Shown here: one piece after another, positions 543-52,367 of the stretch | Numbering within the stretch: the first letter of the stretch is position 1 | Layout: every line of letters begins with the position of its first letter | Source of the DNA: Octopus vulgaris | Taxonomy: Eukaryota | Length of the DNA stretch: 64,000 bases | Direction of reading: 5' to 3' | Assembly: GCA_951406725.2 (NCBI GenBank) | Contig: OX597830.1 | Coordinates: forward strand, 28,892,001 to 28,956,000 | The notes under the pieces: model-generated | Databases searched by the model: none | The model's input: the letters and a program-made list of their open reading frames with translations, nothing else | Told to the model about the DNA's origin: nothing | Made by a program: the position numbers and the translations under genes

Positions 543-745
543 ATCGTTCTTCGTTTTGGACTTTCGTGTTCCTTTCCGTTTCCGAAGAAGAGCTATGCTC
601 GAAACGTAAAACTTTTTACACTTTTCTTTCTCTGAGCGCCTTATTAATACGTTGGTTGTGCAACGTCCAAGCGTTTGTTTGTTTCTTTTTTTTTTATCGC
701 TTTCTCAGTGTATCTTTTTTTTTTTTTATTGACTATGGCTTATAT
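543..745 (+). mobile_element. Penelope-like terminal (pLTR) fragment carrying a hammerhead motif
   Basis: Homologous to 51225-51425 (gaagagct..gctcgaaacgt.aa ... ctgagcg..taata ... gcgtt.gt); pyrimidine-rich; ends in TA-rich sequence. Confidence 0.65.
578..612 (+). ncRNA. minimal type I hammerhead ribozyme motif (U4C variant)
   Basis: Stem I GTTT(578-581)/AAAC(609-612); core CCGAAGA+A; stem II GAGC-tat-GCTC; GAAA(601-604); palindromic ACGT helix III; GUA cleavage triplet. Confidence 0.7.
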
Positions 746-1599
746 AGATAGAAGTTAAAGGATAAATAATGATATCAATCAACAGATATGTCTAACCATT
801 TAGTAATTAACAAACCCAATCTGCGAGACAGAACATGACACTGTTTGAAGCATATATAATATATACATACGTACATACATACATACATATATATATATAT
901 ATATATATATATATATATATATATATATATATATATATATATATATATATACATACATATATATACATATATATACATATATATATGTATATATATACAT
1001 ATATACATATGTACACTTATGTACACGTATGTATATATATATATATATATATATATATATATATATTTATTTATACATATATATATATATATGTTTATAT
1101 AAGTGTGTGTATGTATGTAGCTATCTATGTTTATATCAGGTAATGTTTATGTATACATACACGCATATATACCGGCAAACACTTCCATACCTACACACTC
1201 ATACGCACATAGGCGCGCATACAAACACGCACACGCATACACAGGCACACACACATGTGTATATATATATGTGTGTGTGTGTGTGTATGTATGTATATAT
1301 ATAGGTATATATATATATATATATAGATATATATATATGTATGTATGTATGTATGTATGTATATACGAACATGTGTATATAGGGGACCTCATAAAACTGA
1401 TAGAGATCTATACAGGATATTTCTCTACGCTGTCTAAAGTGTCACGTTACCTTTCTGTAAAAAAAAAAAAATTCTTTTTACTCTTTAAAGAATAACCATT
1501 CTCCTTACCACAATTTTAAACGTATAAGTGTTAGACTACTTCTAAATAATATTGTAGATAATTAAGTGAGTAGTGGTAAAAATAATTATTATTTTGTGC

Positions 1600-1815
1600 T
1601 TTATAGGCACACGGCCATCAATTTTGGGCCAGTATGGCGGTCGTGGAAATCGGCACAAGTGCTCACCTTGTACATATTTTACCGCCCCCGGAAGAGTGTA
1701 AAGCAATTCTGCAAAAATCGACATCACTTTATTTTTATCCTTTCGTGGGGTTGATAGTATAAGTATTATAACCAGGTATATACTTCCCTGGGCTTATGCC
1801 TACAGTTGGAAGTAT
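1600..1815. mobile_element. two degraded SINE family E 3' halves in inverted orientation
   Basis: 1600-1705 resembles minus-strand copy 44584-44700 (tataggcac..aattttgg..gtac.tatttt..ccccg.aag); 1716-1815 resembles the plus orientation (atcctttcg.ggggt.gata..ataagta ... ttatgcctacag). Confidence 0.45.
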
Positions 1816-2230
1816 AATATATGTATGTACGTATATATATATATATATATATATATATATATATATATATATATATATATATACTTATATTTATATATTT
1901 ATATATATATAAGTATATATATACTTATATACACACACACACACACACATATATATATATATATATATATATATATATATATATATAATATATACATATA
2001 TATATAAATATAAATATGTACATACGTATATTTTTATATACATATGTGTGCGTGTATGTATGTATAATACTTTCAAATGTAGGCATAAGCACTGGAAAGT
2101 TTATAGTTAGTTATAATACATATATTATCAACCCCAGGAAAGCATAAAAAGCGCTGTCGATCGCAGCGGATGTATGTATGTATGTATGTATGTATGTATG
2201 TATGTATGTATGTTTATATGTATGTATATT

Positions 2231-2310
2231 AAACTTAAATAAAACTTAGATATGTTTCGACCAAAGATTGGTCCAGGCCATGTCTAACTTAATAGCACCA
2301 CCTCACAGGA
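2231..2310 (-). mobile_element. 5'-truncated 3' terminus of CR1-like LINE
   Basis: gtttcgaccaaagattggtccaggccatgtctaacttaatagcac matches the 3' end of the LINE at 37422-37475 and the fragment at 44010-44062. Confidence 0.65.
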
Positions 2311-49692: not shown

Positions 49693-49875
49693 GGAGGCGC
49701 AATGGCTCAGTGGTTAGGGCAGCGGACTCGCGGTCGTAAGAACGCGGTTTCGATTCCCAAACCAGGCATTGTGAGTGTTTATTGAGCAAAAACACCGAAG
49801 CTCCACCAGGCTCCGGGTGGTGGTGAACCCCGCTGTACTCTTTCACCACAACTTTCTCTCACTCTTTCCTCCCAC
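49693..49875 (+). mobile_element. tRNA-derived SINE family B
   Basis: A box TGGCTCAGTGG, B box GTTTCGATTCC; matches 33802-33965 in reverse. Confidence 0.85.
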
Positions 49876-51224
49876 TTCTTCAATATAGCATAGGAACCAT
49901 GGTGTAATCCACTATGGTGTGGTAAACTTTCAGACTCTAGCCTAGATTGCGAATCCTCTGTACCCCAGGATGGTTCAGCTCTCCACCCATTAAAAGCAAC
50001 CATTTATGGAATGAGGATAACAACGTAGCTTTTGCGCCCGTGCAACCGCCAGTCTATCGCGTGTGGTAGGTGGATCTTGACGTTGCCGCAGGCATTCTTA
50101 GTAGCTTAGAGTAGGCTCGAATTAGAGATTATTCTTTGTTGCTAATGGCGTGAGTCCTGATTGGAAGAAGAAGAAGAAGAAGAAGAAGAAGCAACAACAA
50201 TGATGGTATAGCAGCAGCGATAACAACTGGATGAATTGATGCAAAAAGGCAATAATATGTAAAGTGTCTACTCAATGGGTTCAGAAGAAGGTTTCGAACA
50301 CATGGTCAAGTTATGATATGAAATGTAAGCTATCACCTATGTTATATTAAAAATACATACTATTCAATAAACGTGTATTTTTGCTGAGAATCAATTTTAG
50401 CGCAAATCATTTATTCATTTCAACACATCATAGACATTTTTGTTGCAGTCAATAGAATATATTGTGACCATTCTATTTCTATTTTTCACTTTATTATCAT
50501 TTTCTAATATTAATAAAAATATATTTATTTCAGAATAATAAGATACAGTATACACAGGTAGAAGTGTATAAATCTGTTTCATGCATACTGTAACATTTTC
50601 ATCATTTGGTAATCAGATTATTTTGAAAGAGGTCATAGTCTGTGTGACAATCATACTTTAAATAAACTACGGTTTTGCCAGATATTTATGTATCTACATC
50701 AAAATTTTCACCTTTCTTTTATCATTTATTTTCTAATAATTGATTCTAAACTAAAAACGAACGGTGACGAATATTGGGGGAAGTTTCAGACGCTGAAATT
50801 ATCCTCTTTCCTTGAGTTTTATATTACCTTATCGATCTAGGGAGAATAAAAGGCAAAGTATAGCCATAGGACGATCAGGCCCTGTGAGTGGATTTGGTAT
50901 GCGAAAATAAAAAAGAAAGTCACATTGTATTTGTCCCCGATCTCTCTTGGCAACCAGTGTTAGATTGCTTCCATTACCTTAAAGAAGCTGTTCGACATGA
51001 ATAATTACTAGGTTATTGGACGAATAATGGTCCAATAACTCAAACAATTAAAATTATGTATAAATTTATATGACTGTGTATATATTCAAACACACATACG
51101 TATGCGCTTGTTATTTACACATACATAATTACAAATAAGATTATGTGATGCCCAGAATTTAATGTTCTGATATATCTATATACAACTCTATCTACCTGTC
51201 ACACTATTCCTCCCTCTGTATGAT

Positions 51225-51425
51225 CGCGTGTGTACCATTAGCGATTTTTTTCCTCCGTCTTCCCTTCCTTGGATCTTTCCTTTTCCTATGTTTTTGACGA
51301 AGAGCTCCGCTCGAAGCGTTAAATCATCCTTCTGTCTTTCCTTTCCTGAGCGTCCAATAACACTATACTTGTTCCATGTCTTCGCGTTGTGTTTTCTCTT
51401 TGTGCTTTCATGTCTGGATAACTTT
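51225..51425 (+). mobile_element. Penelope-like terminal fragment with hammerhead remnant
   Basis: Homologous to 543-745; ends directly in (TA)n. Confidence 0.65.
51290..51324 (+). ncRNA. mutated minimal hammerhead motif
   Basis: GTTT-TTGACGA-A-GAGC-tcc-GCTC-GAAG-CG-TT-AAAT; C3U and A15.1G changes relative to the consensus core. Confidence 0.55.
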
Positions 51426-52276
51426 ATATATATATATATATATATATATGTGTGTGTGTGTGTGTGTGTGTATACCCAGACATTAGGTAGGAGCTAGACA
51501 TGCCCAGTATAGAATATACGTAGCAACACTCAAATTGATTTTAATTTAAACGTTGATTTTCTCCTCCAGGACTAGGTCTATAGCATCACGAGTGGCTATA
51601 AAAGAAATCTGACGCTAGCTGATATGGAGATGGTGATACCTTATCTTGCTCCATAGTTGCTGGATCTTCGCACAATACTAACCACCGTACTTATATGTTG
51701 TTTTGCAGGGAATCGCACGGTATCCTTCAATATCATAGCTTCTTCTTAATCAAAAGGTTCTCTGACGTACTCTTCGCGTGTAGGCACAACTTTTTTCCAC
51801 CTTTGCCCATTACATAAAGTCTTTATGATTTTGTCTTATAATCTATAAGCTCTTACTTATTACTTAGCTATGCTAGCTGTATTTTTTCTCTATTCCCTTT
51901 GTACCATGCAACCTATGTTAGCATATCTAGCACCGCTATCCCACCTCCCTTACTTTCGATCATCACTTTTCCCGTTGTATTGCGAGCTACTATCCCTAAT
52001 TGAATTAAAGTCTCCTTATTGACATTCCCAACCATCAGTGGCTTTCCATTTCACCACACTGACCTTACACTTTCCTCCTTCAATCTTCTCTTCCTTTCGT
52101 ATATTCCCCTAGGGCATAGACACCCATCTCCTTCTCCCTAGTTTGCCTTTCTTGTTCATTACATATGTTCCCCCTTCCGACGCCGCTATACCCCCCCCCT
52201 CAACCTACTCTTTGCTGTAATTTATCACCTCTCACTCTTCAAATTTTAAATTTCTCGCACTAAAATATGCCTTTCT

Positions 52277-52367
52277 AAATTTTATCCTGATAGTTGCCTG
52301 TTGCACTTTCGATCAGTATTATTAAATATTTCCGAGCTTCCTGAAACAGCGGTCGGGTTAAAAATTT
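52277..52367 (+). ncRNA. degenerate long-stem-II hammerhead motif
   Basis: AAATTTTATC-CTGATAG...GAAA-CAGCGG-TC-GGGTTAAAAATTT; stem I complementarity and near-palindromic ACAGC(G)GT as at 32870. Confidence 0.45.

Follow-up and report, generated by a model that had tools for sequence, protein, structure and literature searches.

To what kind of element do dispersed hammerhead ribozymes belong, and do they still act in the genome that carries them? The question is raised by a 64-kb stretch of the Octopus vulgaris genome (contig OX597830.1, 28892001-28956000; hereafter the window, which denotes this whole stretch), in which a sequence-only reading had placed six dispersed type I hammerhead motifs. 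These motifs very probably lie in the 3' ends of Penelope-like elements (PLEs), likely scattered as 5'-truncated complementary DNA copies primed at nicks in (TA)n. The window has a base composition of ~30% GC, with TA-type microsatellites throughout, and the genome examined spans 2.8 Gb. No PLE coding sequence was found in the window by tblastn, and the 107 window frames tested (of 112 filtered) include none that Pfam recognises as a host exon.

Hammerhead motifs and their repeat families

Hammerhead-type motifs are present at all six positions named by the earlier reading, and each site matches a dispersed repeat family in the genome. The families are named here by their window sites as A (578), B (20011), D (32802), C (34896), F (51290) and E (52277); family G, a relative of A and F, has no copy in the window. 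A first-look genome search returned 1204 candidates for site 578, 1341 for 20011, 293 for 32802, 193 for 34896, 2995 for 51290 and 48 for 52277, with only 40 scored for each of the six. An exact pattern for the 578/51290 (A/F) type has 11,990 matches in the genome and that of family B has 1,693, with none in the reversed control for either. Within the window the strict descriptor found the 578 motif alone, and this one intact match (at 582) compares with 0.03-0.13 in 40 local shuffles. The structural descriptor also found 17 matches in 488 kb of flanks, part of this DNA lying beside GIY-YIG genes, as against none in reversed and none in shuffled sequence.

Mere chance resemblance in an AT-rich sequence would be in keeping with the outcome for the Rfam models (RF00163 Hammerhead_1 and related), which gave no match at gathering score on the six loci. 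Set against the near-zero shuffle and reversal controls and the membership of every site in a repeat family, chance is barely credible as an explanation. No hammerhead appeared among 150 listed of the 988 weak Rfam matches in the window, a list swamped by microsatellite-driven microRNA matches. Elsewhere in the genome RF00163 gave 6 matches above its cut-off among 73 scored, and these six (L166-L171) are other hammerhead families.

The four helix III sequences first described (ACGT, ACTCcGAGT, CAGCTG and CATATG) are indeed those of the window copies. The full order of parts ascribed to every motif fails at 34896 and 52277, where deletions remove parts. The association with TA-rich microsatellites proved to be at chance level, since 3 of the 6 motifs lie within 150 bp of one as do 50% of random windows; for pure (TA)5+ within the same distance the figures are 2 of 6 and a 45% background.

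Linkage to Penelope-like coding sequence

Upstream walks from the hammerhead reached PLE coding sequence in families A, B, C, D and E. Judged from these walks, five of the six families appear to be tails of PLEs, Hydra-type in B, C, D and E and Neptune-like in A, and the picture of a dense, diverse and mostly decayed population of Penelope termini that had been proposed is borne out. The open reading frame (ORF) upstream of family B carries the Hydra-clade motifs DKT, YRDD, CNCKDESSC, CNLC and CRH, with no CCHH. Coding pieces of its endonuclease end lie in all six stretches chosen for long extension, joined in two of them by reverse transcriptase (RT), and at one locus (L232) the hammerhead follows the stop codon by 1.16 kb. 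The end of this ORF has 79 relatives at ~32-55% identity, many of them with PF26215. Family A has RT and GIY-YIG with a CX4CxxC linker upstream in sense at 11 of 30 walked loci, and L242, L243 and L247 have a CX2-5CxxC linker and a CCHH-type GIY-YIG.

The PLE endonuclease end was found upstream of family C at 3 of 30 loci (best E 5e-28), of family D at 2 of 23 (one strong, at E 1.7e-14) and of family E at 2 of 11 (best E 5.5e-12). These coding ends are decayed, Hydra-type and situated ~1.1-1.3 kb upstream of the hammerhead. RT coding was seen for A and B, and the endonuclease end only for C, D and E; the Hydra assignment accordingly draws on the full motif set in B and on protein similarity together with partial motifs in the other three. 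In family G, 1 of 12 loci runs into a GIY-YIG ORF. Its copies, which are Neptune-like, were met in L338-L349 (e.g., L347:1470-1530).

A genome search with GIY-YIG returned other PLE families with hammerheads of their own, which are not parents of the six. These independent families show the order ORF, untranslated region (UTR), hammerhead and (TA)n, and one has a U3-A8 covariant core. That core belongs to the 3' hammerhead of a young PLE family (L178, L183 and ~17 further matches listed) with many intact 781-codon RT/GIY-YIG frames, the 3' UTR of which contains tandem units of ~93 nt with ATTGG and TGACGTC words that may resemble promoter elements.

3' ends, 5' ends and the proposed route of insertion

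The order of parts in the elements is ORF, a UTR of 1.1 to 1.5 kb, hammerhead, short 3' end and (TA)n. In 27 of 30 B copies and 18 of 22 F copies the 3' end runs straight into (TA)3+. Two alternative 3' ends occur, ~210-270 nt apart in C and D (L054, L058, L092, L113) and ~70 nt apart in B. Tail-bearing, 5'-truncated copies with an inverted partner were seen in B, C and D, an inverted copy of the family lying within 450 nt upstream at 10 of 30, 14 of 30 and 9 of 25 loci, respectively.

The sequences downstream of the hammerhead (the tails) occur upstream in inverted orientation only, an observation that bears on whether the motifs are non-LTR retrozymes replicating through self-cut circular RNAs. 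Type I hammerheads with a palindromic helix III are common to animal retrozymes (bioRxiv 10.64898/2026.07.22.740005; this source and those cited below by PMC number were available in part). Nevertheless, a second same-strand piece of the family was found at 1 of 165 fetched loci only, and five families run into PLE ORFs, so that a retrozyme origin, which the sequence-only reading had left as an alternative, is very unlikely.

The 5' ends of unselected tail-bearing copies, a small sample from 1.18 Mb with ends set by local alignment, seldom coincide with the cut site. Ends within 10 nt after it number 0 of 18 in F-like, 2 of 37 in G-like and 2 of 13 in B-like copies, and ends upstream of it number 16, 32 and 10 of the same totals. 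As few ends lie just after the cut and most lie upstream, the majority of integrated copies likely came from RNA that was not cut at the hammerhead site.

Known PLE biology suggests how such copies may arise. The GIY-YIG endonuclease of the element would nick AT-rich DNA, and its RT would begin to copy the element RNA at either of two internal sites; early RT stops would leave stubs of 150-500 nt, and strand switching would yield inverted pairs such as the one at 32255-32921. The hammerhead of the source element would likely fold only as a dimer via its palindromic helix III, and its cleavage would likely be slow or protein-helped.

Several observations weigh against an origin of all six families as PLE 3' ends. 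The (TA)3+ junction is weak in the old families (5 of 11 copies in A, 3 of 17 in C, 1 of 15 in D and 2 of 12 in E), a test limited by copy age and by the end patterns used, and an inverted partner was found at 0 of 30 A, 0 of 25 E and 0 of 25 F loci. Three of the Hydra ORF pieces escaped Pfam, which also scored the family A endonuclease below its cut-off. The ORF links of C, D and E rest on few, decayed copies, and the probable clade assignment rests on motifs, without an RT tree. Lastly, family F shows no ORF of its own in 55 loci (25 and 30), and its 5' ends cluster; its only link to PLEs is as the sequence sister of A.

These features of family F would also be accommodated if it were a non-autonomous unit of ~220 nt, similar to a short interspersed nuclear element (SINE) or a retrozyme, that stems from a Neptune-like 3' end and depends on mobilisation in trans. 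Most of 30 F copies taken in genome order begin in a narrow zone ~100 nt upstream of the cut site with no upstream ORF of their own, and 11 of 18 F-like 5' ends fall at -110 to -90. Two copies (L394 and L417) nonetheless continue into family-A-like upstream sequence, the sister families A and G are ORF-linked, and G has a like 5' cluster yet an ORF. A truncation hot spot accounts for the cluster and tandem arrays of F were not found, which together make an independent unit unlikely.

Folds of the family majority motifs

A majority motif was built for each family from 24-29 relatives, and those of all six families fold as a type I hammerhead with a palindromic helix III. Stem I is of 3-5 bp, and stem II is closed by 3-7 bp. 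Families A and F cross-match at E 8e-14, and the six families are therefore five lineages. Because copies decay neutrally from a master, within-family covariation was set aside, and stem pairing was compared across unrelated families in its place. Both stem I and stem II pair in each of the six majority motifs, which have five unrelated stem sets, with the exception of the closing pair of stem II in family C. This position, which sits above a long stem, is a G-G mismatch in 46 of 77 exact matches, the remainder having T (23), A (6) or C (2).

The stem II regions of C, D and E are 53-122 nt long. That of family E (L126:1370-1560, L132:1370-1560), at ~122 nt, is predicted to form a multibranch arm of -34.5 kcal/mol in the majority motif. 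Helix III forms no computed monomer hairpin in any majority motif, and its self-duplex has energies of -1.7 kcal/mol in A and F, -7.0 in C, -7.8 in B and -11.1 in D and E.

Core variants across families

Positions in the core are given in hammerhead core numbering (C3, U4, G5, A6, 7, G8, A9, A15.1 and U16.1). The canonical core, CUGANGA...GAAA...NUH, is the majority state in C, D and the 51290 subfamily of F. Non-canonical majority cores have C4 in A and B and U3 with G8 in E, where U3 is the alignment majority, is read by eye in the copies and is present in 3 of 3 exact matches. Their distribution over copies indicates that these variants are family-wide states rather than decay. The counts that follow are tallies over the matches listed, the first ones in genome order.

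With positions 4, 5, 7 and 8 left free, the first 100 matches of family B comprise 80 with C4G5, 11 with U4G5, 7 with C4A5 and 2 others. U4 and A5 are about equally frequent (p 0.48), as they should be if a C4 founder has decayed at its CpG. In four sequencing runs no row showed C-to-T at 20019 above 5% and the depth-weighted frequency lies below the 11 of 100 found in the genome, results that are supportive, and only supportive, of C4 as the main form. Family A has C4 in 11 of the 14 copies listed with the window's loop, and its sister loop type has mostly U4. For the F type, 100 listed of 8,654 matches comprise 75 with C4G5, 20 with U4G5 and 4 with C4A5. The window's own F subfamily has U4 in 93 of 100 listed of 1,839 matches, and its larger sister is dominated by C4; a core that is canonical throughout F was considered and ruled out, U4 being limited to the subfamily of the window.

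In B and F-type copies C4-G5 forms a CpG, the decay of which yields the canonical CUGA. Descriptor searches may therefore misread which form was active. Family G, with 16,944 exact matches, has U6 in 96, G5 in 97 and G8 in 96 of 100 listed, with position 7 varying freely (T 43, A 25, C 22, G 10). That G5 and G8 hold constant next to so variable a position 7 speaks for what would be continued selection on the core, and against a ribozyme that is simply dead; few source lineages underlie the comparison.

In vitro, U4C lowers hammerhead activity yet supports a viroid, and A6C is slow (PMC3088659). Set beside the family-wide states above, these measurements suggest a reading that we regard as a serious possibility without favouring it, namely that the most successful PLE lineages amplified with predicted-slow cores, the fold being selected as a switch, either protein-assisted or deliberately slow, or as a handle by which the protein of the element grips the RNA. 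On the same tentative footing, U4C may have had independent origins in a Hydra family and among the Neptune-like subfamilies. It is likewise plausible, if somewhat short of probable, that a Neptune-like family with at least 17,000 copies has A6U as a fixed state. Our literature search found no description of family-wide U4C or A6U in PLEs, although supplements outside it and a 2017 RNA Biology study may cover them.

The copies in the window

The 578 copy lies in the 3' terminus of a 5'-truncated, Neptune-like element of family A (545..733, + strand), which has matches of 81-87% genome-wide. Its minimal type I hammerhead (578..612, +) equals the family majority over the whole motif, with stem I at 578-581/609-612, a C4-bearing core at 582-588, stem II at 590-600 and GAAA at 601-604; cleavage is predicted after 608. 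The family B copy (20011..20155, +) is the 3' terminus of a young Hydra-type element inserted in (TA)n, with matches of 91-96%. Its hammerhead (20014..20051, +; core 20018-20024 with C4) is laid out as in the published Hydra-2_aMil, and three private changes break its stem II.

The Hydra-type 3' terminus of family D (32733..32921, +) is the direct copy of an inverted pair that spans 32255-32921. Its type I hammerhead with a long stem II (32802..32883, +) has U16.1 changed to C and mismatches in stem II. The inverted, tail-bearing partner (32255..32629, -) is a seventh site, overlooked in the earlier reading, the outer end of which adjoins a TA run; in its hammerhead remnant (32486-32567, -) the GAAA and the cleavage triplet are mutated. 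The family C terminus, also Hydra-type (34852..35044, -), contains a hammerhead remnant at 34896-34979, from which a 7-nt deletion takes the 3' arm of stem I together with U16.1 and the cleavage base.

The short F element (51225..51425, +), sister of A, ends at (TA)n and carries a minimal hammerhead at 51290-51324 with private C3U and A15.1G changes. An old 3' terminus of a decayed Hydra-type element (family E) lies at 52245..52420 (+). Its hammerhead remnant (52284-52357) has internal deletions, with ~45 nt lost, including G8, A9 and the 5' arm of stem II. That this 52277 copy is a chimera was considered and rejected, its 5' part being homologous in 3 of 9 long relatives (0 of 300 shuffles reach the score); of the other long relatives, three had 2-3 of 300 shuffles reaching the score and three were not significant.

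Lesions particular to each copy, as the sequence-only reading had described them, are found in five of the six; the CC core at 578 and 20011 is the state of the family and not a lesion of the copy. The lesions in these five copies would be expected to inactivate them, and inertness and neutral decay are predicted for the copies in the window. The six copies themselves are without evident function.

An exception might be sought in host-used ribozymes that cut introns or untranslated regions, since the 578 copy equals its family majority and the 51290 subfamily has ~1,800 copies with a canonical core (judged from the U4 share among its matches listed). Such use is highly improbable given that five of the six copies have private disabling lesions, that a single copy cannot form helix III and that Pfam detected no host exon in the window. 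The 5' ends are not piled at the cut site either, and cleavage of host introns and production of circular RNA, as had been envisaged, find no support. Assembled contigs from four sequencing runs presumed to be RNA span the F motif, a kind of data that shows neither RNA ends nor circles.

A possible eighth, more decayed half-motif lies at 2240-2290 (-), with a hairpin, GAAAC and ATAT, a 3' end that runs into a TACA repeat and an unrecognisable core. At 49240-49275 (+), a weak hairpin followed by GAAACATG probably arose by chance or is a relic of great age. The window also has abundant SINE-like repeats that are not related to the hammerhead families, at 5172-5233, 33736-33799, 40348-40409, 41990-42090, 43587-43638, 44585-44731 and 56658-56716.

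Abundance and meaning

Profiles of the six families and G gave 17 matches in 40 evenly spread 10-kb stretches of the genome, with none in reversed sequence and 7 in the window. This corresponds to ~1 per 24 kb (17 per 400 kb, families other than these uncounted), and the density of ~1 per 10 kb suggested from the window is not that of the genome. Extrapolation yields ~119,000 hammerhead-bearing stubs per genome, with a 95% range of 69,000-191,000, some matches being partial and other families again uncounted. The estimate exceeds the 2,000-9,000 hammerheads per genome of a survey of 2014 (PMC4209133), in which descriptor-intact motifs only were counted.

The arrangement is known already; what is new are the families, which represent truncated PLEs, Hydra-type and Neptune-like, with a hammerhead in the 3' end. 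The main value of the octopus copies lies in their scale and in the natural experiment that they offer, as family-wide variants in well-amplified lineages touch on the question whether the hammerhead serves PLEs at all and, if it does, how. Should lineages indeed have amplified with slow cores, sister pairs that differ as U4/C4 and A6/U6 and have known copy numbers would make hammerhead function in PLEs directly testable.

Comparison with known systems

The pLTR hammerheads of PLEs (PMC4209133) and those described here share the type I form, a stem I of 3-5 bp and an extra base before stem II. The metazoan PLEs of the same survey also have the palindromic helix III, single motifs dispersed by the thousand as truncated elements and opposite-strand pairs 100-700 bp apart. 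The U3-A8 covariant of that source was seen here in a PLE family other than the six. The octopus families differ in their family-wide U4C, A6U and U3-G8 cores, which are not described in the available part of it, and in their stem II regions of 53-122 nt (C, D, E).

The Hydra clade (PMC8557442) shares with the present families DKT, CxCx5C, CxxC, CxH, a (TA)n target and a hammerhead ~100-150 nt from the 3' end. Family B and the coral Hydra-2_aMil are equal in stem I and helix III and differ in position 4, which is C in B and U in the coral element; in addition, the 3' UTR of 1.1-1.2 kb makes B longer than the typical Hydra element of <3 kb (PMC8557442). Hydra-1_oBim is listed with a canonical hammerhead (PMC8557442), and octopus PLE hammerheads are therefore already in print. 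Families B-E differ from it in both protein and hammerhead, and the supplement text searched does not contain their motifs. PMC13282606 lists PLE families of an octopus that were active recently, and PMC6765202 is a background source on the hammerhead subject.

The Neptune/Nematis clade and families A and G (F by similarity) have in common the CX4CxxC linker before a C-terminal GIY-YIG, microsatellite insertion and the 3' hammerhead. The present families, assigned to this clade from motifs and not from a tree, differ in having U4C and A6U fixed in subfamilies. In animal non-LTR retrozymes, too, short non-coding repeats akin to PLE termini carry a type I hammerhead; tandem arrays, the defining feature of retrozymes, were not found here.

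The Poseidon element PAc of Anolis provides the biochemical counterpart. Its protein nicks AT-rich DNA, has two internal RT start sites and uses mainly uncut RNA, and its hammerhead, which cuts only with the protein, is dispensable for insertion in vitro (PMC11167929). PAc and the present families are alike in having two 3' ends and no ends at the cut site. Its tail of 30-40 nt compares with ~210-270 nt in C and D and ~70 nt in B, which belong to other clades and are known here from sequence only. In metazoan PLEs the hammerhead shows no activity as a monomer and only weak activity as a dimer (PMC4209133). Together, these studies describe PLEs with a largely uncut template and a weak ribozyme, a picture that the 5'-end data of the octopus copies appear to fit.

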